Of a stretch of DNA of 64,000 bases, positions 22,858 through 41,581 are shown one piece after another. This stretch comes from Gemmatales bacterium (GTDB taxonomy: Bacteria > Planctomycetota > Planctomycetia > Gemmatales > HRBIN36). Numbering within the stretch: the stretch's first letter is position 1; every line of letters starts with the position of its first letter. The stretch spans positions 1,214,660 through 1,278,659 of the forward strand of contig JAXMBC010000001.1 of assembly GCA_046350055.1 (NCBI GenBank). The letters are read 5' to 3'. Under the pieces are notes generated by a model. It was not told the origin of the DNA. It was given only the letters and a program-made list of their open reading frames with translations, and ran no database searches. Position numbers and translations under genes: made by a program.

Positions 22858-23622
22858 ATGATCATGCGTTGCCTGGCCATCGCCTGCCTCTTCATCGCTC
22901 AGACAGCGTACGCCCAAACCGTGCTGTTTGATGAAACCGCTGGCACACTTCCCGCTGCCCAGGGCTGGCTCACCTACATCGTCCAGGGCTCCGCCACTCA
23001 GACGTACCTGACCAACCAGGGCGTGCAACTGGTCACCGATAACGCTACCCAGGCAGGCTACTTCAATCGCAATCTCTTCACCGGCACTCTGGTCAACCCC
23101 GCCTTTCCCGTCCTCCAGCGTAACCCGGGCTTTGCGGTTCGCTTTGATCTCACCGTGACCGCGGAAGCCCATCTCAACAACAATCGTGCAGGCTTCAGCG
23201 TCATCGCCCTCGCCAGCGATGGCATGGGCATTGAACTGGGCTTCTGGGCCAACGAAATATGGGCCCAGAACGACACCCCCCTCTTCACTCACGGCGAAGG
23301 CGTAGTACGCAACACCACCTCTGCTACCAGCTACCTCCTCAGCCTCGTCGGCAACAGCTATCAACTGGTAGCGGACGGTTCTCCGATTCTCAATGGTGCG
23401 CTGCGCAACTATTCCTCGTTCGGATTTCCACCCTACACCTACACCAGCTTCCTCTTTCTGGGGGACGATACCACCAGTGCCAGCGCCGATGTCACCCTCG
23501 GCCGCGTGACCCTCCTCGCCAGCGTGCCAGAACCAGCCAGCTGGATGATGATGACGGTAGCGGTGCTGGGCGCAGGCTGTTGCTATCGGCGATGGAAGCG
23601 CGGAAACATACAAGTCGCCTGA
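22858..23622 (+). CDS. PEP-CTERM sorting-domain protein
   Basis: The start is taken at MIMRCLAIACLFIAQTAYAQ (signal peptide). The C-terminus is VPEPASWMMMTVAVLGAGCCYRRWKRG. Confidence 0.75.
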   Translation: MIMRCLAIACLFIAQTAYAQTVLFDETAGTLPAAQGWLTYIVQGSATQTYLTNQGVQLVTDNATQAGYFNRNLFTGTLVNPAFPVLQRNPGFAVRFDLTVTAEAHLNNNRAGFSVIALASDGMGIELGFWANEIWAQNDTPLFTHGEGVVRNTTSATSYLLSLVGNSYQLVADGSPILNGALRNYSSFGFPPYTYTSFLFLGDDTTSASADVTLGRVTLLASVPEPASWMMMTVAVLGAGCCYRRWKRGNIQVA

Positions 23623-23758
23623 TCGTTACGGTGTAGACTTCGCAAACATTGTCTTCGGGGAGAATATCGTAATCGCTGGCCACATCATATCGGGGAATAA
23701 TCAGCCTGCCACACCCGCAAGCCTCCGCCACCGAATGTTAGGCTGTTGCATTGGCTGG

Positions 23759-24136
23759 TTATACCCCGCCCGCTGGCGGGAAGTCACCGACGCTGAAAGA
23801 GGCCCATGACAGCCCAGCGACGTGCGGTCGCCCCGACTTGGCGTCAAATACGCCTTCCAGAACGCTCACATTGTCATTCGCGATCAACGGCCCAGACACG
23901 AGCCAGTCGCTCGCAATACGGTTAGCAACGAGGAGTAATTCGAACACGCCCGTTGCCGCCGGGGATGAAAACGGGCTGCGAAGTGCGACCTCCCACAGCT
24001 CGGGCACCTTCCAATACGGCTTCGGAGCCTCGACGACTTCGGACGGAAGGACTTCGCGGGTTCGCGCAAGACACCGGTCGGCGCCCGCAGCGTCGTTCAC
24101 ACGAAACATCAGACGCCAGGCAACCTGAAGGGGCAT
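23759..24136 (-). CDS. cassette ORF g, hypothetical
   Basis: A 125-aa ORF from the ATG at 24136; the track starts it at the GTG at 24154. A GCCGAAC box lies just upstream (complement of 24157-24163) and a GCCTAAC box just downstream (complement of 23737-23743). Confidence 0.5.
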   Translation of the reverse strand: MPLQVAWRLMFRVNDAAGADRCLARTREVLPSEVVEAPKPYWKVPELWEVALRSPFSSPAATGVFELLLVANRIASDWLVSGPLIANDNVSVLEGVFDAKSGRPHVAGLSWASFSVGDFPPAGGV

Positions 24137-24172
24137 AACGTAGGTCCGGTGCACTGGTTCGGCGTCAGCGGC

Positions 24173-24493
24173 TCACCCACCGATCAGTTGCTGCCATCCG
24201 AGCAACGCCTGACGGAACTCGTCCAGCCCGACACGGCACACCGGCATGGACTCGTCCCACAGGCACTTGATCTCGGCCCCGGCAGCCGACAGGGTAAGCA
24301 GGAACGCATTGCCGGTGCCGCTGAACCCCGACTGACAACCTGCGGCGACCGCCTCTGCCATCTCCACCAACTCGGCAGCCCCGTTCGGGCTGGATTGGAC
24401 ATCCTGTTCCAAGAACCAGCCGACGGCCTCGTGTGGCGGAGCCACCTCGCACCGCGGGTAGCCATGCGCGTCTCGCAGGAACCGGGCTTCCAC
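24173..24493 (-). CDS. cassette ORF f, hypothetical
   Basis: A 106-aa ORF with a GTG start, preceded on the minus strand by GTTCGGCGGCGGAGGGCTTGCGGCA. Confidence 0.5.
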   Translation of the reverse strand: MEARFLRDAHGYPRCEVAPPHEAVGWFLEQDVQSSPNGAAELVEMAEAVAAGCQSGFSGTGNAFLLTLSAAGAEIKCLWDESMPVCRVGLDEFRQALLGWQQLIGG

Positions 24494-24600
24494 TGCCGCA
24501 AGCCCTCCGCCGCCGAACGACCCCGCTCAGCGGCCGCGGGGGCTCGGTGAGCTGTGAGTCGCAGAAACGCTACATGCCCCCGCCGGTCTGCTGCAGCGCC

Positions 24601-24834
24601 TGGATACTAATCATAGCCCTTCGGTTACAGTGAAGTCGGCGAACTTCACTCCAGGAGAGACTACGATGCGTTACTACACCCAGACTCACCCATACTACTG
24701 TGGCGTCGACCTGCACGCAAGAAGCCCGGGTGCCATAGCCTGCGTGTACTCACGCTGGCTATGCCGAGGTACCCCAAGGTTCCGGCATAGTCAGGTCGAG
24801 TACGACCAGACTAGGGCCCCCTTGCTATAGAGGG
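24601..24834 (+). mobile_element. recombinase-less remnant of an IS110/IS1111-family element inserted in an attC-like site
   Basis: The left end has the hairpin AGTGAAGT-CGGCGA-ACTTCACT and GGAGAG upstream of the ATG at 24666. It encodes MRYYTQTHPYYCGVDLHARS, where GVDLH corresponds to the N-terminal GIDxH/K motif of DEDD (IS110) recombinases. The ORF is then fused directly to module A1. Confidence 0.5.
24725..24817 (+). repeat. structured module A, copy 1 (candidate IS1111-type right end / guide RNA)
   Basis: H1 is 24734-24763 (CATAGCC-T-GCGTG TACT CACGC-T-GGCTATG). H2 is 24759-24790 (CTATGCCG...CGGCATAG). H3 is 24794-24807 (GGTCG AGTA CGACC). Confidence 0.7.
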
Positions 24835-25262
24835 GTTCGGCGTGCCTCTGCTTCTGCAGCCCACAGGGACCAATACCGCTCGGCCGCCGCCTCCAACTCC
24901 GCCTGCGACAGCGGCTGGCCCTCGGCGGTGGCTGCGTGTGTTGACGAGTACCGCGTCAGCAGGTAGCCGCCGCCCCCACGGTCCGAGCACTCGACGCGGA
25001 TGGCCCCCTCGGCCACCTCCGCCGACAGCACCTCCAGGCCGATCGCGGCGATGGCGACCGGGTCGGACACCGGCGGCCCCTCGTAGGGGTGGTACTCGAA
25101 CCGCTCGCACCCGGTGAGCGTGACCAGCACATGCTCGGCGCGGGTGGGCAGGTGGCCGCACAGGTACGAGATGCCGACTGACAGCCGGAGGTCGCCGGGG
25201 ACTGAGCCCTCGGCTGCCGACACCTCGCCGTCGTGCAGCACGTTCCAGATGGCGACATCCAC
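24825..25262 (-). CDS. cassette ORF e, hypothetical
   Basis: A 145-aa ORF with a GTG start and GGAGGG 9 nt upstream. The GCCGAAC box overlaps its last codons (CGC CGA ACC CCT CTA TAG). Confidence 0.5.
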   Translation of the reverse strand: MDVAIWNVLHDGEVSAAEGSVPGDLRLSVGISYLCGHLPTRAEHVLVTLTGCERFEYHPYEGPPVSDPVAIAAIGLEVLSAEVAEGAIRVECSDRGGGGYLLTRYSSTHAATAEGQPLSQAELEAAAERYWSLWAAEAEARRTPL

Positions 25263-25286
25263 CCGTTGCGCCCTCCGCCGCCGAAC

Positions 25287-25442
25287 AGATGCTTCTCTGA
25301 CCTATAGGTCAGAGAGTAAACTACACAGGTCAGATAATACCGGCTTGTCTCCAGCCTGGTCAAGCGATTACATCGAAACGTCGGCTTTCCTGATCTCCCA
25401 CTTTCTCCAAGCCGTCCACTAGCCACCACCCTGGTGTACAAG
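25287..25442 (-). promoter_or_regulatory. element B, copy 1 (short form): outward promoter plus palindromic operator/hairpin facing ORF e
   Basis: On the minus strand, TTGACC (25363-25358) is followed by an 18-nt spacer and TATTAT (25339-25334). A CTGACC half-site and the perfect 22-bp palindrome TCTCTGACCTATAGGTCAGAGA (25294-25315) follow. Confidence 0.55.
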
Positions 25443-25534
25443 CCTATCATAACAGGGAGGCAGGCCTGCGAAGGTCGTGGAGACGGTCTGTCTATAGAGT
25501 GCAGTAACCGTGGCACGATGAACTCCGCCGCGCG

Positions 25535-25630
25535 CCCGGGTGCCATAGCCTGCGTGTACTCACGCTGGCTATGCCGAGGTACTCCGAGGTTCGGGCATAG
25601 TCAGGTCGAGTACGACCAGAGGCCGTCCGG
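25535..25630 (+). repeat. structured module A, copy 2
   Basis: It is near-identical to copy 1, with H1 at 25544-25573. The H2 3' arm reads GGTTCGGGC. It is preceded by segment C, which ends in ATGAACTCCGCCGCGC. Confidence 0.7.
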
Positions 25631-25788
25631 TAATTGAGTTGATCTAAACTGCCTGATCTCTTGAGGTTACGTTGTTGTTTGCCAACGCCAACGCAACACA
25701 TCAGGAGATCAGGCATTGCTTAGTGCCAAGGACGGCACGTCGCTCGCCACGTTGATACAGCAAGCCATTCCTGTTTGTCAGGAAGCGG

Positions 25789-25890
25789 CGGGTGCCATAG
25801 CCTGCGTGTACTCACGCTGGCTATGCCGAGGTACTCCAAGCTTCCGGCACAGTCAGGTCGAGTACGACCAGGCTTTGGCACCCGTGCGAG
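25789..25890 (+). repeat. structured module A, copy 3, with a perfect closing stem
   Basis: The closing stem is CGGGTGCC (25789-25796) paired with GGCACCCG (25877-25884). H1 is at 25796-25825. The module ends at the stop codon of ORF d. Confidence 0.7.
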
Positions 25891-25894
25891 CCAG

Positions 25895-26413
25895 CTACCA
25901 AGTCCGATGATAGCGGAACCCATCGTGATCCGTGCCCTCGATGTATCCCATCGCTGACAATGTCTGTTCAGCCGCCCGCCGCCGCGTGAACCCGAGCAAG
26001 TCCTCGCGGCCGGCGTTCGTGAGTTCCGCGGCGACCCGCTCAAAGGTGCACCGCGGGTCGTGACCGAGCAACTCGGCCGAGCGCCACGGGAGCGGCATGA
26101 CCAAAAGCTTCTCCCGGTCGTCGTCGGGGTCCGCCAGACCCAGAGCGAGGAGGGCCAACTCGAGCGTCTCTAGGGACGCCCGGCGCACCGCCAGTGCAGC
26201 GGATCGCTCCGCGTAGCACAGCAGGACGGATGCTAGCCCGCCGTCCATGCAGCCGAGAAATTCGGCGGCAGACGGGCCAGCGTCACGGGCAGTCCGCAGG
26301 AGTGCCTCGACGGACTCATCAAGCGGATGAGGTATAGGCCGCGGGCCGTAGCCATCGTACACGCCGTCTCAGATTGCGGCGTCAACCCGGTCAGCAATGT
26401 CGTCGAGACCCAT
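25895..26413 (-). pseudogene. cassette ORF d with an in-frame TGA after codon 14
   Basis: On the minus strand, GAGGAGG lies upstream (7-nt spacer) of the ATG at 26413. This encodes MGLDDIADRVDAAI, then TGA (26371-26369), and the same frame continues DGVYDGYGPRPIP... to 25895. The track lists only 25895..26362. Confidence 0.45.
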
Positions 26414-26427
26414 CGCCCTGCCTCCTC

Positions 26428-26523
26428 GCCGAACGACCCCGCTCAGCAGCGGCGGGGCACCGGCGAGCTTGGACTCCCAGAACAGCGTCATGCCCCGCCG
26501 TCTGCTGCAGTGCCTCGTTCGGC
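26428..26523. other. intact attC-like site (96 bp)
   Basis: It runs from GCCGAAC (26428-26434) to GTTCGGC (26517-26523). The arms CAGCAGCGGCGGGGC and GCCCCGCCG-T-CTGCTG pair, leaving one unpaired T. Confidence 0.6.
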
Positions 26524-26529
26524 GTGCCT

Positions 26530-26931
26530 TTAGCTCATCTGGAGCCGGAACCCAATGCCCTCTGACGCTGCAACCCCAAGGACCCGCGCCATCTCCTCCA
26601 ACTCCTCGACCACTCCGGCGGACTCGTCGAGCCGCTTCGCCGCCTTCGGGCTGGCCTTGATGTGGTCGGCGAGGGCTTGCATCGCGGCCCGGCCCTCGGC
26701 CGGATCGAACCACTCAGTCCACTCGCCCATGACCTCCGCAAGGTCGTCCGGATCGCCGTCGAAATCCTCGGGGATCGGGCGGTTGTCCGCGAACGCCGTG
26801 AACGGCGTGAGCTTGGCCGCCCGTGCGATCTTGTCGAGTACCTCGAAGTTCGCCGCCAAGACCTCGCCGAGGGCGACGAACTTGGTGCCCGTCAGCTTGG
26901 GCTGGAACACTGGGTAGATGCCCAAGCTCAT
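26530..26931 (-). CDS. cassette ORF c, hypothetical (acidic; immunity-protein-like flavour)
   Basis: A 133-aa ORF with the ATG preceded by GGCGGAGGGCAAGCGG. It reads MSLGIYPVFQPKL...PEDFDGDPDDLAEVMGEWTEWFDPAEG. Confidence 0.55.
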   Translation of the reverse strand: MSLGIYPVFQPKLTGTKFVALGEVLAANFEVLDKIARAAKLTPFTAFADNRPIPEDFDGDPDDLAEVMGEWTEWFDPAEGRAAMQALADHIKASPKAAKRLDESAGVVEELEEMARVLGVAASEGIGFRLQMS

Positions 26932-26954
26932 CCGCTTGCCCTCCGCCGCCGAAC

Positions 26955-27173
26955 AGTTGTTTCTCTGACCTATAGGTCAGAGAGTAAACTACACAGGTCA
27001 GATAATACCGGCTCGACTCCAGCCTGGTCAAGCGATTAGCCTCGGATGGTCCAATTCCCTGACCTAAACTCTGATGAAGCTCCTCGACTACTGACAAACT
27101 CTGTCTCGACCTTTCAGTTTACTATCTGCAACTTTCTCCAAACCGTTCACTAGCCACCACTCTGGTGTACAAG
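26955..27173 (-). promoter_or_regulatory. element B, copy 2 (long form): outward promoter plus palindrome facing ORF c
   Basis: On the minus strand, TTGACC (27031-27026) is followed by an 18-nt spacer and TATTAT (27007-27002). The palindrome is at 26962-26983. Confidence 0.55.
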
Positions 27174-27174
27174 T

Positions 27175-27290
27175 CCGGGTGCCATAGCCTGTGTGTACTC
27201 ACCCTGGCTATGCCGAGATACTCCAAGGTTCCGGCATAGTCAGGTCAAGTACGATCAGACTAGGGCACCCGGGCACCCGTGCAGCGACTG
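27175..27290 (+). repeat. structured module A, copy 4, with a closing stem and full 3' tail
   Basis: The closing stem is CCGGGTGCC (27175-27183) paired with GGCACCCGG (27264-27272). The tail GCACCCGTGCAGCGACTG abuts GTTCGGC (27291-27297). Confidence 0.7.
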
Positions 27291-27304
27291 GTTCGGCGGC
27301 GCCC

Positions 27305-27772
27305 TCACTCTTTAATACCCCAGCCCGCTAGTCGTTCCTTATGAGCGGCCGTGACTGCATTTTCATACGCAGCAGGGTCATTGAGCAATGTGGGCAGAAT
27401 GATTTTCTCGATGTCATCGACGACCGCATCAACGATGTCGCGCCCATCCGTCGTTTCGACGGCCCACTGCTTTTCGTTAAACCGGACTGCGCTTTCGCTA
27501 GCCCGGCCAAGCCGTTTGATCAAGTCGTCGTGACCACAAAGGAACTTCCCGTAATCATAGTTCGGTAATCCTAACTCGTCGTACCGAACAATCAGTCCGA
27601 TCTTTACCGGAGGCCTAATGTAAAATCCGTTTGAAAAAGGGCCGCCAGAACTGACAGCATTGTGTTCGGCCTCAAAGACGAATCCGTGCGGATTCAGGAT
27701 CGGATCGAGCCGGGCGACAATTGCGAGCAGGCGATCGTGCGGTTGTCCCAGGTATTTTGAGGACTTACTCAT
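27305..27772 (-). CDS. cassette ORF b, hypothetical
   Basis: A 155-aa ORF from the ATG at 27772 (MSKSSKYLGQPHD...). The track start at 27799 lies inside the attC-like site. Confidence 0.55.
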   Translation of the reverse strand: MSKSSKYLGQPHDRLLAIVARLDPILNPHGFVFEAEHNAVSSGGPFSNGFYIRPPVKIGLIVRYDELGLPNYDYGKFLCGHDDLIKRLGRASESAVRFNEKQWAVETTDGRDIVDAVVDDIEKIILPTLLNDPAAYENAVTAAHKERLAGWGIKE

Positions 27773-27787
27773 GTCAGTCACCAAGCC

Positions 27788-27882
27788 GCCGAACGACACC
27801 GTTCACCTGCGAGGCGGCCGGTGAGACGTTGAACCCTGAAAAACCGTGATGCCGCCGCGTCAGGTGCAACGGCTGGTTCGCT
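27788..27882. other. intact attC-like site (95 bp)
   Basis: It runs from GCCGAAC (27788-27794) to GTTCGCT (27876-27882). The arms CACCTGCGAGGCGGC and GCCGCCGCG-T-CAGGTG covary relative to the site at 26428-26523. Confidence 0.6.
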
Positions 27883-27890
27883 GCGGCCCC

Positions 27891-28436
27891 TCAGTCGCAG
27901 TCTTGGTAGCCACCCAACTGACCACATTTTCTGCACCGAAACATGTACGCAGTCGGTGATCCTTCCTTGTCGAGTGCGGCGAGAAACTCCTCCCACTCGG
28001 GGCCATCTGAAAGGCCCGCGGAATCTTGAATCGCAGCTATTGCTTGTGGACCGAGAGCCTTCAACTCCTTCTTCCCAGCGCGCCCGATGAACTCAGCTGC
28101 ATCGCCACAATGGGTCCACCATTGCTCTTGTTGCCAGCCCGAGAATCCGGGAGTGCGATGGGCCACCTCCTCGATCACCTCTTCCGGCACTTCATCCCAC
28201 ATCCCGCCGCCGCCAATGCCGGCATCGTCGGTGAAGCTCGCTTCCAGTTTTTCATTAGCGGACCCGTCTGCGATGCACCAGGGGCATATGCATTGGTCGT
28301 ATTCCTCCACGGCGTAAACGGGGCCGGTGTAGATGAAGCCGCACGCCTTCCCACAGCAGGCGCATTCGGTATCGGACTTGATGACCATTCCGGTCGCCAA
28401 GGGGTCAGGGTGGTACTTGAAGGTTGGCAGTGCCAC
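27891..28436 (-). CDS. cassette ORF a, CbrC/UPF0167-family protein (colicin-tolerance-associated family)
   Basis: It reads LPTFKYHPDPLATG...CACCGK...CPWCIADGSA...FRCRKCG. It has a GTG start with AGGAG 7 nt upstream. Confidence 0.65.
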   Translation of the reverse strand: MALPTFKYHPDPLATGMVIKSDTECACCGKACGFIYTGPVYAVEEYDQCICPWCIADGSANEKLEASFTDDAGIGGGGMWDEVPEEVIEEVAHRTPGFSGWQQEQWWTHCGDAAEFIGRAGKKELKALGPQAIAAIQDSAGLSDGPEWEEFLAALDKEGSPTAYMFRCRKCGQLGGYQDCD

Positions 28437-28459
28437 GGTCGACTCCTAAAGCAGCGAAC

Positions 28460-28679
28460 AGTTGTTTCTCTGACCTATAGGTCAGAGAGTAAACCACACA
28501 GGTCAGATAATACCTGCTTGTCTCCAGCCTGGTCAAGCGATTAGCCTCGGAAGGTCCACTTCCCTGACCTAAACTCTGATGAAACTCCTCGACTACTGAC
28601 AATACTCTGTCTCGACCTTCAAGTTTACTATCTCCAACTTTCTCCAAACCGTCCACTAGCCACCACCCTGGTGTACAAG
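28460..28679 (-). promoter_or_regulatory. element B, copy 3 (long form): outward promoter plus palindrome facing the cbrC-like ORF
   Basis: On the minus strand, TTGACC (28536-28531) is followed by an 18-nt spacer and TATTAT (28512-28507). The palindrome is at 28467-28488. On the plus strand it is followed by segment C (28680-28770), but no module A is present. Confidence 0.55.
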
Positions 28680-29189
28680 CCTATCATAACAGGGAGGCAG
28701 GCCTGCGAAGGTCGTGGAGACGGTCTGTCTATAGAGTGCAGTAACCGTGGCACGATGAACTCCGCCGCGCACACAATCGCACGGTTGGTTGCATCGCCAC
28801 GAGGTGCTGCAGACGCGGCAGGATGCCGCGTCTACTTTGCGCACATGCGGTGCTGGGGATGAACCACTTCGCGTGCACGCGAGCCTTCAGATGGCGCGGG
28901 CGCGAATAGTTTGCTGCTGCATGAATCGACGGTGCACAGAATTCTGACGTAAGTCATTGACATCATTAACGATGCGCTGCGCACGAGTGGTTTGCCAGAT
29001 GAACTGAGACTGCACTGCCCCCGACTCTGCGACCCAAAGCCTCCCGCATACGGTGGATGTCGCCCTGAATCCACACCTCACCTTCACGCCAACCCTCGCT
29101 GCCATCCCTATACTAAACAGTTGCCAAGTCACCCAACCATTCGCCCCGCTCCTTCACTCTTCCGCTAAGGAGTCGGGCCAGGAAAGCAC

Positions 29190-31031
29190 ATGAAACGGAA
29201 CGATATTCGCAATGTCGCCATCATCGCCCACGTCGATCATGGCAAAACCACGCTCGTCGATGAAATGCTCAGGCAGTCAGGCCTCTTCCGCGCCGGCGAA
29301 CTCGAGAAGCTCGAAGGAGGCCAGCACGGCCTCATCATGGATTCCAACGAACTGGAACGGGAGCGGGGCATCACCATCCTCGCCAAGAACTGTGCCATCA
29401 AGTGGGGCGATACCAAGATCAACATCATCGATACCCCCGGCCACGCCGACTTCGGTGGCGAAGTGGAACGCGTCCTTCGCATGGCGGACGGTGCCGCACT
29501 GCTGGTCGATGCCGCCGAAGGCCCGTTGCCTCAGACCCGCTTCGTGCTCCGCAAGGCGTTCGAGTGTGGCCTCAAGCCCATTGTGGTGATCAACAAGATC
29601 GATCGTCCCGATGCCCGGGTGCAGGAAGTGCTCAATGGCATCTTCGATCTCTTCGTCGATCTCGATGCCGATGATGCGACCTGCGACTTCCCCGTGGTGT
29701 ATGCCTCGGGCCGCAATGGCTGGGCCAAGCTCAGCATGGATGACGAGAGCAAGGACTTGCGTCCCCTCGTCGAAACCATCATGAAGCACGTGCCGCCGCC
29801 TGATGTGAACCTGGATGCACCAGCCCAGTTCCAGGTGAACAACCTCGACCACAGCGAATTCGTCGGCCGCATTGCCGTGGGCAAGGTCTACGCTGGCAAG
29901 CTCAAGAAGAACCAGCGCGTGGCGGTGCTCTCCCGCGACAACAAGCGGACCGATTACAACATCAAGCAATTGCTGACCTTCGACCGTCTCGGTCGCAACG
30001 AGGTGGAGGAAGTGACCGCTGGCGACATCTGTGCCATCGTCGGCCTGACCGATGTGGAAATGGGCGACACGGTAGCAGATGTCGATCATCCCAATCCCCT
30101 TCCAGCACTGAAGGTCGATGAACCAACACTGACGATGCTCTTCCGCATCAACGATTCGCCCTTCTCCGGGCGTGATGGTGAGTACGTCACCAGCCGGCAG
30201 TTGCGCGACCGTCTGTTCAAGGAACTGGAACGCAACGTGGCCCTGCGGGTCGTGCCGGCAGCCAAGTCCGACGAGTTCATGGTCTCAGGCCGAGGTCTTC
30301 TGCACCTGGGCATTCTGCTCGAGACCATGCGCCGCGAAGGCTATGAGCTCAGCGTCGGCAAGCCCCGTGTCATCATGAAGGAAGAAGGGGGCATGAAGCT
30401 GGAGCCGGTGGAATACCTTGTGATCGAGTGTCCGCAAGGGTCCGTCGGTTCCGTCATGGAACTCGTCGGCAATCGCCGGGCAGAATGCCTGAAGATGGAT
30501 GCCCGAGGCGAACTGACCCACCTGGAGTTCACCATCCCCGCCCGAGGTCTCATCGGCCTCAAGACCCGGCTGCTCACTGCCACCAGCGGTCAGGCCATCA
30601 TGCACCACACGTTCTACGACTATCAGCCCAGCCGTGGAACCATCCCGTCACGGACCAACGGCGTGATGATCGCCACCGAAACTGGCCCCGCCACGTTCTA
30701 TGCCATTGAAGGCTTGCAGGACCGGGGCGTCATGTTCGTCTCGCCGCAGGATCAGTGTTATGAAGGACAGATCGTGGCCGAGCATTGCCGCGACAATGAC
30801 CTGCCTGTGAATATCGCCCGTGAGAAAAAGCTGACCAACATGCGGAACGCCAACGCCGAAAAGACGGTGGTGCTCAAGGCTCCCCGGCAGATGACGCTGG
30901 AAATGGCTCTCGAGTACATCGAAGACGATGAACTGGTGGAGATCACACCAAACTTCATCCGGCTACGGAAGATGATGCTCAAGGAAGCTGACCGCAAACG
31001 GTTCGACCGGTCGAACCGGGAGGCGGAATAA
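29190..31031 (+). CDS. typA: translational GTPase TypA/BipA
   Basis: It starts [24 protein letters not shown], has [12 protein letters not shown] and NKIDR, and is 613 aa long. Confidence 0.9.
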
Positions 31032-40092: not shown

Positions 40093-40656
40093 TTACGGAT
40101 GTACTTTGTAACTCTGCCAGCGCGCCGATGTCCCCAGCGTACCGCTCCATTGTTCAACATAGCCACGATCAAGCATGCTGCCGCGCTGCAGGATTAGCCC
40201 TCGAATATCTTCCGCATCCTTGGCGCGTTCCGAGAAGAGCTTCAGCAAGATGATATCTTCCGCACTGGCAACACGAATGCTGAGGCCATTCAGTTGAATA
40301 TACCTGGCTCGCTGCATGATCGATTCAGCCCAGTCACCATCGACTGCGATCATGTCAATAGTGACAAGTCGTTGTTCTACCTTGATATGTGAGCGGAGGA
40401 TGTACATGTGCGGAAATGGCAATTGCTCGGGTTCAAACACAAAGAATGCCCTGCCATCCTTGACCAGTGCTTCCTGCAGAACGGTCCGATCCATGGCGAC
40501 AATGAAATCGACATCCGAGGTGCTGCGCGGCTGACCATAGACTGCCAGCGCCATCCCACCGATTAGAGCGAAAGGCACTTGATGACTTGAGAGAAAACTA
40601 CTTGCTACTTTGAGCGATTCGATCAAATCCGAATGCTTCAGGTTTGAGGAGTCCAT
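40093..40656 (-). CDS. nucleotidyltransferase-fold protein (MNT/DUF6036-like)
   Basis: It has IGGMALAVYGQPRSTSDVDFIV, which fits the GG...G..R.T.D.D NTase signature. Confidence 0.55.
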   Translation of the reverse strand: MDSSNLKHSDLIESLKVASSFLSSHQVPFALIGGMALAVYGQPRSTSDVDFIVAMDRTVLQEALVKDGRAFFVFEPEQLPFPHMYILRSHIKVEQRLVTIDMIAVDGDWAESIMQRARYIQLNGLSIRVASAEDIILLKLFSERAKDAEDIRGLILQRGSMLDRGYVEQWSGTLGTSARWQSYKVHP

Positions 40657-40861
40657 AGGCCTTCCATTTCTCCAGGCGGTAGCGCTCCAGCCGTTCCCAC
40701 AGGATATTGTTCACTTCCACAGGTGTGGCTTCGGGAAAATCGGCAACCACACCCGCCCGCGCGAGTTGCAGATTGAGATCACACAACCTGATGCCCTCAA
40801 GTAGACGCTGGCTTAGCACTTCGGGTGTTTCGTCGGGAAACATACGCCTCTCCTGCACCAC
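40598..40861 (-). CDS. small hypothetical protein overlapping the NTase gene start
   Basis: An 87-aa ORF that overlaps the downstream ORF by 59 nt. It may be a partner of the NTase. Confidence 0.35.
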   Translation of the reverse strand: MVQERRMFPDETPEVLSQRLLEGIRLCDLNLQLARAGVVADFPEATPVEVNNILWERLERYRLEKWKAYGLLKPEAFGFDRIAQSSK

Positions 40862-41026
40862 GATAGTCTATAGTTTTCCACGAATCAGTTCATTCCATGA
40901 CTGTCATCACCTTCATTTCTCAAGTTAGTCTTCATGCATGGCCGTTCTCTTTCGCAGTGCCTTGGTTTGTTGTATCGTTCAGATAGAATTGAAACATCTA
41001 ATCACATCTGAAGGGTACGCTATCCC

Positions 41027-41581
41027 ATGAAGCCCAGGAAGACAGTGAACGATGCGCAGGCTGTCTACAGCCTCGTGGAGCAGCGGTTTGTCGAACTCTG
41101 GGGCGACATGAGTTCCTGGTGGGGCGTCAGCCGTACCATGGCCGAGATCCACGGTCTGCTGTTTATCACCGGCACCCCTCACTCGGCCGAAGATATCCAG
41201 AACAGCCTGGGTATCTCGCGTGGCAACGTCAGCATGAACATCCGCACGCTGGTGGAGTGGGGCCTGGTTCGCCGGGTACGCAAGCGTGGCGACCGGCGTG
41301 ACTACTACGAATCGCTGACCGATGTCTGGGAAATGTTCACCGTGCTGGCAGCCCAGCGGAAACGACGGGAAATTGACCCCATCGTGAAAACGCTGAAACA
41401 GTGCCGGACGGATCTCGACAGTCTGGAGAAGGGCAAGAAAGAGACCCCCGGTCATCATGTGGCCCGGGTCGATGAATTGCTCGGCTTCCTGCAGACCGTC
41501 GAGAAGGTGGCAGAGCACTTCTTCAAGCACAACGAAGGGTTGCGGGAAGCCATGCAGTTGCTCGCCCAGGCGGAGGTGTAG
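41027..41581 (+). CDS. GbsR/MarR-type winged-helix transcriptional regulator
   Basis: WGVSRTMAEIHGLLFITGTPHSAEDIQNSLGISRGNVSMNIRTLVEWGLVRRV forms a wHTH. Confidence 0.65.
   Translation: MKPRKTVNDAQAVYSLVEQRFVELWGDMSSWWGVSRTMAEIHGLLFITGTPHSAEDIQNSLGISRGNVSMNIRTLVEWGLVRRVRKRGDRRDYYESLTDVWEMFTVLAAQRKRREIDPIVKTLKQCRTDLDSLEKGKKETPGHHVARVDELLGFLQTVEKVAEHFFKHNEGLREAMQLLAQAEV

Follow-up and report, generated by a model that had tools for sequence, protein, structure and literature searches.

A non-coding repeat of 156–220 bp, here termed element B, occurs three times on the minus strand of a cassette array in Gemmatales (Planctomycetota) DNA, within a 64-kb stretch that was analysed as a whole (the window). 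Each copy ends flush with the R′ core of a cassette recombination site (attC), carries a sigma-70-type promoter-like sequence followed by a perfect 22-bp palindrome, and points into the next open reading frame (ORF). The feature is real and organised, its interpretation as a promoter is plausible, and its mobility and regulation are unproven. Our preferred reading, held tentatively at a probability of about 0.45, is that B derives from a site-specific element that targets attC sites, either as its terminal fragment or as a non-autonomous derivative, and that an outward promoter of this element would feed the following cassettes. We prefer it because the site-specific 3′ junction of B mirrors that of an attC-targeting insertion sequence (IS) remnant two cassettes away, and because of the foreign composition, constant orientation and conserved promoter block of the repeat.

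Element B at the attC cores

The array lies at ~23.7–29.1 kb of the window and holds seven small ORFs (a to g) in the same orientation, between which lie sites with GCCGAAC (R″) and GTTCGGC (R′) as their cores. An earlier, sequence-only reading had described a portable promoter with a palindrome in front of three of these ORFs, and its inventory of one short and two long copies on the minus strand was confirmed, coordinates included (Table 1). All three copies share one orientation, lie 0 nt from an R′ core and point into the next gene. The ORFs behind them (a, c and e) are unrelated to one another, and a GGAG-type Shine–Dalgarno (SD) sequence precedes their start codons by 7–12 nt. Both edges of B are sharp, the 5′ edge at CTTGTACACC and the 3′ edge against the R′ core in three of three copies. 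The short form differs from the long form by a 63–64-nt internal deletion and a diverged 23-nt stretch. With a G+C content of 47–51%, B stands apart from the window (57%) and from the cassettes (55–74%).

The 3′ block of B is identical at 80 of 84 positions in every pair of copies, while element C, a 91-nt segment upstream of copies 1 and 3, is identical between these two at 89 of 89 positions. The copies are thus mosaics, a pattern that indicates recombination among them. Contigs of the same strain from short-read metagenomes break inside B and inside the neighbouring hairpin element A, as expected for repeats.

The integron integrase crosses over between the G and the TT of the R′ core, and the sequence 5′ of that point belongs to the preceding attC. 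Since B ends there, it is part of the remnant of the upstream attC and not of the cassette that follows. A relative of the ORF c cassette on another contig (L095) carries an ordinary attC arm directly 5′ of its GTT core, which makes B foreign to cassette c. In the upstream attC, B has taken the place of the 3′ (L′) arm. The sequence-only reading had B placed in front of individual cassettes; it does precede a, c and e, but its one-by-one placement before three ORFs is weakened by the finding that B lies outside the cassettes that follow it. Unrelated ORFs can come to stand behind B through ordinary cassette exchange, and any cassette recombining at its core ends up there.

Promoter-like block and palindrome

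Every copy of B contains TTGACC, 18 nt and TATTAT, which agrees with the sigma-70 consensus at 10 of 12 positions and falls within the 16–18-nt spacing of −35 and −10 hexamers; the hexamers are invariant and the spacer is variable. A promoter scan of 5.8 kb returned four promoter-like sites, three of them in B, where shuffled sequences lead one to expect 1.4. Directly 3′ of the −10 hexamer stands a CTGACC half-site, followed by the palindrome, the R′ core, the SD sequence and the start codon. This ordered series, listed by the sequence-only reading, is present in full, as is the further GGTCAG half-site upstream in both long copies, and the near-consensus promoter faces one of three unrelated ORFs in a constant orientation in all three cases.

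The final 116 nt of the long copies contain five occurrences of TGACC or its complement GGTCA, against ~0.31 expected from the window-wide frequency (~16-fold enrichment). Four of these occurrences share the longer consensus TTCYC-TGACC-TA, and neighbouring copies of the same orientation are 21 nt apart, a spacing that would suit a DNA-binding protein on one helix face. The palindrome (TCTCTGACCTATAGGTCAGAGA) is found exactly three times in the window, with 0 expected by chance even when three mismatches are allowed, and its arms extend imperfectly to 16 nt. The last 84 nt of B vary at six positions: three in the promoter spacer, one in the gap between half-site and palindrome, and two in the 8-nt tail. 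The 40 positions of −35, −10, CTGACC and palindrome are free of variation (p = 0.017, for a motif set chosen post hoc).

On folding, the palindrome forms an independent stem-loop with a 9-bp stem between about +13 and +34 of the predicted transcript. Because no U-tract comes after it, this stem-loop is not an intrinsic terminator. Sequestration of the SD sequence by this hairpin was considered and rejected, as the three predicted 5′ untranslated regions show no consistent pairing. B as a whole folds only moderately better than its shuffles (z = −2.3 and −2.9).

In the mechanism that we propose, B would have replaced the L′ arm of three attC sites, ending exactly at the R′ core, and its last ~90 nt would act as a predicted sigma-70-type promoter firing across that core into the next cassette. 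Each copy would drive one cassette block (a–b, c–d and e–f–g). Two of the three copies lie downstream of hairpin debris (A) probably derived from an IS110-family element, and B may restart transcription there. A single DNA-binding protein most likely recognises both the palindrome and the TGACC repeats; it could be a repressor gating the promoter, or else the parent element's recombinase. Near the start of the transcript the palindrome would also form a stable stem-loop.

Relatives, neighbouring elements and the host array

The sequence-only reading had called for a wider search for the palindrome, above all upstream of a regulator gene. The exact 22-mer has 0 matches in ~185,000 species genomes. 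Its 20-mer core occurs at four loci in JGI metagenomes, in unrelated contexts, two as an operator in a MerR-type promoter (L003 and L005) and two as intergenic hairpins (L002 and L004). At the first two (L003:4580–4611 and L005:1029–1060) the same 20-bp palindrome, with 29 of 32 identities to B including one flank, occupies the 20-bp spacer of the promoter TTGACT...TAAACT of a low-G+C organism, in a region flanked by genes for a MerR-like protein and for a flavodoxin-like/NAD(P)H oxidoreductase; the sequence can thus act as an operator elsewhere. B itself differs from MerR-type promoters, in which a palindromic operator fills a 19–20-bp spacer between −35 and −10: its plus-strand hexamers TTGTTT...TAAACT are 22 nt apart, and the scan reports no such site. 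At L004:471–514 the identical 22-mer, flanked by GAAC/GTTC core-like ends, is the centre of a 44-bp perfect palindrome (CCTGAACACT-TCTCTGACCTATAGGTCAGAGA-AGTGTTCAGG) directly 3′ of a DegT-type aminotransferase gene on a high-G+C contig. Among the 30 window ORFs scanned against Pfam, the only helix-turn-helix protein is a MarR-family regulator (41027–41581, plus strand), and a TGACC palindrome was not found upstream of it. Its gene forms a divergent pair (40093–41581) with that of an AbiEii/DUF2204-type nucleotidyltransferase (40093–40656, minus strand).

A blastn search for B in plasmids and two scans of viral contigs found nothing, and nhmmer profiles of B, of its core and of A returned only the window's own copies, in one run across 89 fetched loci and in another across eight ORF c loci (L095–L102). 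A 91-amino-acid open frame through B has no relatives in the protein collection searched, no relevant Rfam match was obtained across 23500–29300 at gathering score or E ≤ 10, and ARAGORN and tandem-repeat scans gave nothing relevant.

ORF c belongs to a conserved 133-amino-acid Gemmatales family with 116 relatives. B was also considered as the native upstream region of this family. The likeness seen by eye (AATCGCTTG..., CTGACTGTGT; L095–L102) gave alignments no better than those of shuffles, and the regions upstream of the homologues in other Gemmatales hold attC sites and repeats of their own. Six contigs (L095–L100; for example L095:300–1360) share an identical ~970-nt unit between differing outer flanks. 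It consists of a TTGCGT-18-TATATT promoter-like module, an attC-like hairpin (GTTCAAC...GTTGCAG), an ORF c homologue (86% identity) and an attC-like site, bracketed in L095 by 60-nt direct repeats that are 90% identical; this may be another, unrelated promoter-plus-cassette unit in Gemmatales. A different metagenome-assembled genome (MAG; GCA_022842245.1, L101:4528–7427) carries a cassette array with four 227-nt repeats, each composed of an attC (GGCGAAC...GTTCGCC, ~75 nt) with ~45 nt conserved before R″ and 55–110 nt after R′, so that the repeat unit is much longer than the attC itself.

Element A is a long imperfect hairpin of 100 nt, present in four copies, all on the plus strand. It directly adjoins B upstream of copy 2, a place taken by element C at copies 1 and 3. 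The attC after ORF e holds an IS110-family remnant, antisense to the cassettes and followed by A (copy c1) and the R″ core. The predicted transposase N-terminus of the remnant (MRYYTQTHPYYCGVDLHAR) is 65–74% identical to annotated IS110 transposases (tblastn), and its 20 codons at 24666–24725 are the only IS110 match in the array. ISKpn4 in a class 1 integron shows the same geometry, at the R″ end and antisense. A is most simply, though unproven, the 3′ non-coding part of the element that left this remnant.

Marine gammaproteobacterial IS110 elements with a transposase N-terminus resembling that of the remnant (L007:3551–3810, L091, L092 and L093) have a conserved ~260-nt non-coding region after the stop codon, with a ~145-nt hairpin and repeated CTAACTGG motifs, and also share the left-end motif TTGATACTCATTGAGCC. 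The region downstream of their transposase is probably a guide RNA region. Homology of A or B to such IS110 non-coding regions, suggested by eye, was discarded (z ≤ 2.4; none by nhmmer). So was a guide-RNA logic linking A and B, in which CCTGTGT and CAGGTCA of A (copy c4) match ACACAGGTCA in B′, since an 11-nt dual match arises in 13–16% of shuffles. At the 3′ edge of copy c4, GGGCACCC is repeated 2.6 times in tandem (27263–27283), perhaps through a small duplication where A meets the attC, and a 152-nt segment (25632–25783) between two direct A copies carries an inverted repeat of its own.

The array is bounded by typA (plus strand, 29190–31031) and a PEP-CTERM protein gene. The nearest typA loci, at ~83% nucleotide identity, are those of Gemmatales MAGs, and the exact protein of ORF c is recorded, as a hypothetical one, in a MAG of this order; both place the window in the Gemmatales. 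The closest typA loci have no array, no A, B or C elements and no cassette homologues. Two attC sites are intact and fold into textbook hairpins in which the cores pair, the spacer stays unpaired and some bases bulge out. As the sequence-only reading had noted, intI and the cassette promoter Pc are both missing from the window: no intI-like sequence was found by tblastn with an IntI1 query, and translations of the region adjoining B copy 3 showed neither intI nor a pseudogene of it. The locus is thus an attC cluster without an integrase.

Cassettes f, e and c open directly after the R′ core with a common leader (GTTCGGCGGCGGAGGGC...) that is the source of their SD sequence, and a degenerate leader (AACATTCGGTGGCGGAGGCTTGCGG, ~23715–23740) after GCCTAAC marks the distal end of the array. 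Cassette d begins with a 14-codon ATG ORF (26365–26412) whose TGA stands just before the GTG-initiated, 155-amino-acid ORF d, and an R″ core is missing 3′ of the cassette's stop codon. The arrangement may reflect a gene broken by a frameshift or a nonsense mutation, or else a short leader ORF.

Table 1. Positions of element B, its motifs and the surrounding features in the window.
Feature	Position	Strand	Remarks
Element B copy 3, long form, array head	28460–28679	minus	abuts GTTCGCT and ORF a; nhmmer E = 6e-79
Element B copy 2, long form, inside disrupted attC of cassette b	26955–27173	minus	abuts GTTCGGC and ORF c
Element B copy 1, short form	25287–25442	minus	abuts GTTCGGC and ORF e
R′ core at 3′ end of B, copy 3	28453–28459	minus	GTTCGCT
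R′ core at 3′ end of B, copy 2	26948–26954	minus	GTTCGGC
R′ core at 3′ end of B, copy 1	25280–25286	minus	
Promoter-like site, copy 3	28507–28536	minus	TTGACC-18-TATTAT; promoter scan
Promoter-like site, copy 2	27002–27031	minus	TTGACC-18-TATTAT; promoter scan
Promoter-like site, copy 1	25334–25363	minus	TTGACC-18-TATTAT; promoter scan
Upstream inverted GGTCAG half-site, copy 3	28564–28569	minus	long copy
Upstream inverted GGTCAG half-site, copy 2	27059–27064	minus	long copy
22-bp palindrome, copy 3	28467–28488		pattern search
22-bp palindrome, copy 2	26962–26983		pattern search; independent 9-bp stem in predicted 5′ untranslated region
22-bp palindrome, copy 1	25294–25315		pattern search
Element A copy c4	27171–27270	plus	directly adjoins B copy 2
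Element A copy c1	24722–24821	plus	
Element A, other copies	25532–25631, 25784–25883	plus	
Element C, 91-nt spacer between A and B copy 1	25443–25533	minus	identical (89/89) to 28680–28770 upstream of B copy 3
IS110-family remnant	24601–24725	plus	antisense to cassettes; 65-nt left end and first 20 codons (MRYYTQTHPYYCGVDLHARS)
Inverted repeat of the 152-nt segment	25705–25714, 25651–25660	minus (as read)	GCCTGATCTC and GAGATCAGGC; encloses second GTTGCGTTG/CAACGTAAC pair
Intact canonical attC between cassettes c and d	26428–26523	minus	GCCGAAC...GTTCGGC; fold z = −6.6
Second intact attC	~27787–27885		fold z = −4.9
Shared cassette leader	24490–24518 (f), 25258–25286 (e), 26926–26954 (c)		
Cassette ORFs a–g	23759–28436	minus	ORF calling and Pfam
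ORF a	27891–28436	minus	UPF0167/CbrC family, Pfam E = 2e-60
ORF b	27305–27799	minus	
ORF c	26530–26931	minus	no Pfam family
ORF d	25895–26362	minus	
ORF e	24825–25262	minus	no Pfam family
ORF f	24173–24493	minus	
ORF g	23759–24154	minus	

Competing readings and known systems

The position of B resembles that of the IS110/IS1111-attC group: each of the three copies sits at a core, in a fixed orientation and without target duplication. The sequence-only reading had equated this insertion point with that of the IS110 remnant. The two agree only in mirror image, as the remnant lies at the R″ end on the opposite strand, and the same mirror relation holds with ISKpn4. Several observations weigh against the derivation of B from an attC-targeting element. 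No transposase lies in or beside B, and no terminal inverted repeats, target duplication or empty site were found for it; no inverted repeat joins its ends and no direct repeat stands in its flanks, as would be seen in a miniature inverted-repeat transposable element. No second locus with B came to light outside the array, and the collections searched yielded no homologue, so that mobility and function have no independent evidence, and the mobility asserted by the sequence-only reading found no support. Comparisons of B with A, with the IS110 remnant and with the non-coding regions of related IS110 elements gave no significant similarity, and the guide-like match between A and B is at chance level. 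The conservation test is weak, with three copies and motifs defined after the fact, and the rules of planctomycete promoters are poorly known. If B is a right end, a further difficulty is that the known IS1111-attC elements lie antisense near R″, and we know of no sense-oriented parent at R′.

A related reading, which we consider unlikely, makes B an undescribed non-autonomous element that targets attC cores, delivers a promoter and is mobilised in trans, inserting in the sense orientation at the L′/R′ boundary. An IS110-type RNA-guided or other site-specific recombinase would then bind the TGACC repeats and the palindrome, and the regulated promoter would take over the following cassettes in arrays without Pc.

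The palindrome may instead be a host site. An attC has complementary R″ (RYYYAAC) and R′ (GTTRRRY) cores, an imperfect stem with extrahelical bases, an unpaired spacer and a length of ~57–141 nt. The sequence-only reading had offered as its alternative that the extended palindrome with GCCGAAC is a minimal attC into which the rest of B and A were inserted. The 16-nt imperfect arms are indeed there and R′ is present, but no R″ precedes the hairpin, its arms are perfect over 9–11 bp with a 3×3 mismatch further out, extrahelical bases are missing, and at 36 nt, or ~50 nt with cores, it is too short. In a fuller version, the 36-bp hairpin would be a residual short attC or a REP-like hairpin, and the rest of B with A an internally deleted antisense IS110 with an outward promoter in its left end. 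The plus-strand order (GCCGAAC, hairpin, rest of B′, A, 12–20 nt, GTTCGGC) fits this, placing the IS-like part near R″ and antisense as in ISKpn4 and the IS1111-attC group. A comes after the IS110 transposase remnant in the neighbouring attC, and within the 3′ block variation is highest in the 8-nt tail between palindrome and R′ core (two of eight positions differ in copy 1). The 44-bp perfect palindrome at L004, in which the identical 22-mer is flanked by CTGAAC/GTTCAG, points the same way, though this match, retrieved by an exact search for the 20-mer core, may be due to chance. Beyond the shortcomings of the hairpin as an attC, the L″ still in place (cagtcgctgcac) lacks a complement, R″ is missing at copy 3, B′ bears no relation to the left end of the actual IS110 remnant, and a 22-bp core that is 100% identical in all three copies would be odd for independent host sites. 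We rate this account, too, as unlikely.

Three further explanations are less likely. The first of them, doubtful in our view, takes B (with C) for a gene-less promoter cassette moved by an integrase encoded elsewhere, as in Vibrio superintegrons (PMC11014356) and oral Treponema arrays (PMC6557892). Besides these precedents it can claim the sense-strand promoter-like site ahead of cassettes, the end of B exactly at the G|TT crossover point, and the start of C (GCGCGGCGGAG), which resembles the conserved cassette leader GGCGGCGGAGGG. Yet B itself contains no attC, lacking both an R″ core and an imperfect stem that would pair with R′. The 5′ edges of B (CTTGTACACC) and C (GCGCGGCGGAG) have no GTT core, and copy 2 adjoins A, probably IS-derived, inside the attC of another cassette. 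Doubtful again, and ranked below it, is inert debris spread by unequal or homologous recombination, in which hexamers and palindrome have no role in cassette expression. The confinement of B to one 3.4-kb stretch, the mosaic copies and the lack of homologues suit this idea, and one promoter-like match per ~220-nt element has a chance expectation of ~0.05, not zero. Against it stand the variation that avoids the motifs, the enrichment of TGACC, the consistent orientation and the constant distance to the R′ core.

The attI1 site of integrons contains the integrase-binding sites DR1/DR2 and a simple site. B could accordingly be read as a relic of an integron platform, attI with Pc, whose TGACC repeats bound the integrase before intI was lost. 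Copy 3 is at the expected position of attI, between the first cassette and the non-integron DNA of typA, several repeated sites lie upstream of the G|TT crossover, and the promoter faces the cassettes. An attI/Pc region would be a single copy beside intI; here there are three, two of them internal to the array, with no intI-like sequence in the window and no intI or pseudogene detected beside copy 3, and the closest relatives have no integron beside typA. We regard this explanation as improbable, the least likely of those weighed.

The expression of cassettes far from Pc, or in attC clusters lacking an integrase, is a live question in integron biology. A promoter brought to such cassettes was presented by the sequence-only reading as an unusual solution, a description that does not stand, as outward promoters and promoter cassettes have already been described (PMC3001079; PMC11014356; PMC6557892) and the concept has clear precedents. 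If our preferred reading is true, B would be a third route, a possibly regulated promoter at the recombination core and the first such case in Planctomycetota. Any cassette recombining in at its core would be expressed instantly, and if the TGACC and palindrome sites bind a regulator, cassette expression in the array would be conditional.

Group IIC-attC introns insert into attC sites and have described outward promoters (Pout), and putative ones were proposed for IS1111-attC elements (PMC3001079). As would apply to B, the introns block read-through and supply an internal, outward sigma-70-type promoter to the next cassette (PMC3001079). B differs in showing no intron trace (Rfam, E ≤ 10) and no reverse-transcriptase ORF, in its length of only 156–220 nt, in ending at R′ and not near R″, and in its palindrome and repeated TGACC sites. 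The IS1111-attC elements ISPst6, ISPa21 and ISKpn4 are IS110-family members that insert site-specifically, in a single orientation, a few nucleotides from the attC core. The array studied here contains the remnant of one such element, albeit with an N-terminus different from that of ISKpn4, and a putative Pout has been suggested for ISPa21 and ISPst6; B, in contrast, has no transposase and no demonstrable homology to the remnant, to A or to non-coding regions of IS110 relatives, and occupies the opposite end of the attC. In the modular IS110 system ISPpu9/ssr9, a non-coding module can exist and spread as solo copies at the specific target of the element (PMC12288879). For B no circular form, transposase partner or homology is shown, and the analogy fits A better.

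Gene-less cassettes bearing promoters have been described in Vibrio superintegrons (PMC11014356) and in an oral metagenome (PMC6557892). Like B, they are non-coding array units with sense-strand promoters, and they keep distal cassettes expressed; unlike B, which sits in a broken attC beside IS debris, they have an attC of their own. B is thus a member of neither the group IIC-attC introns nor the gene-less promoter cassettes, though working, on the reading preferred here, like both.

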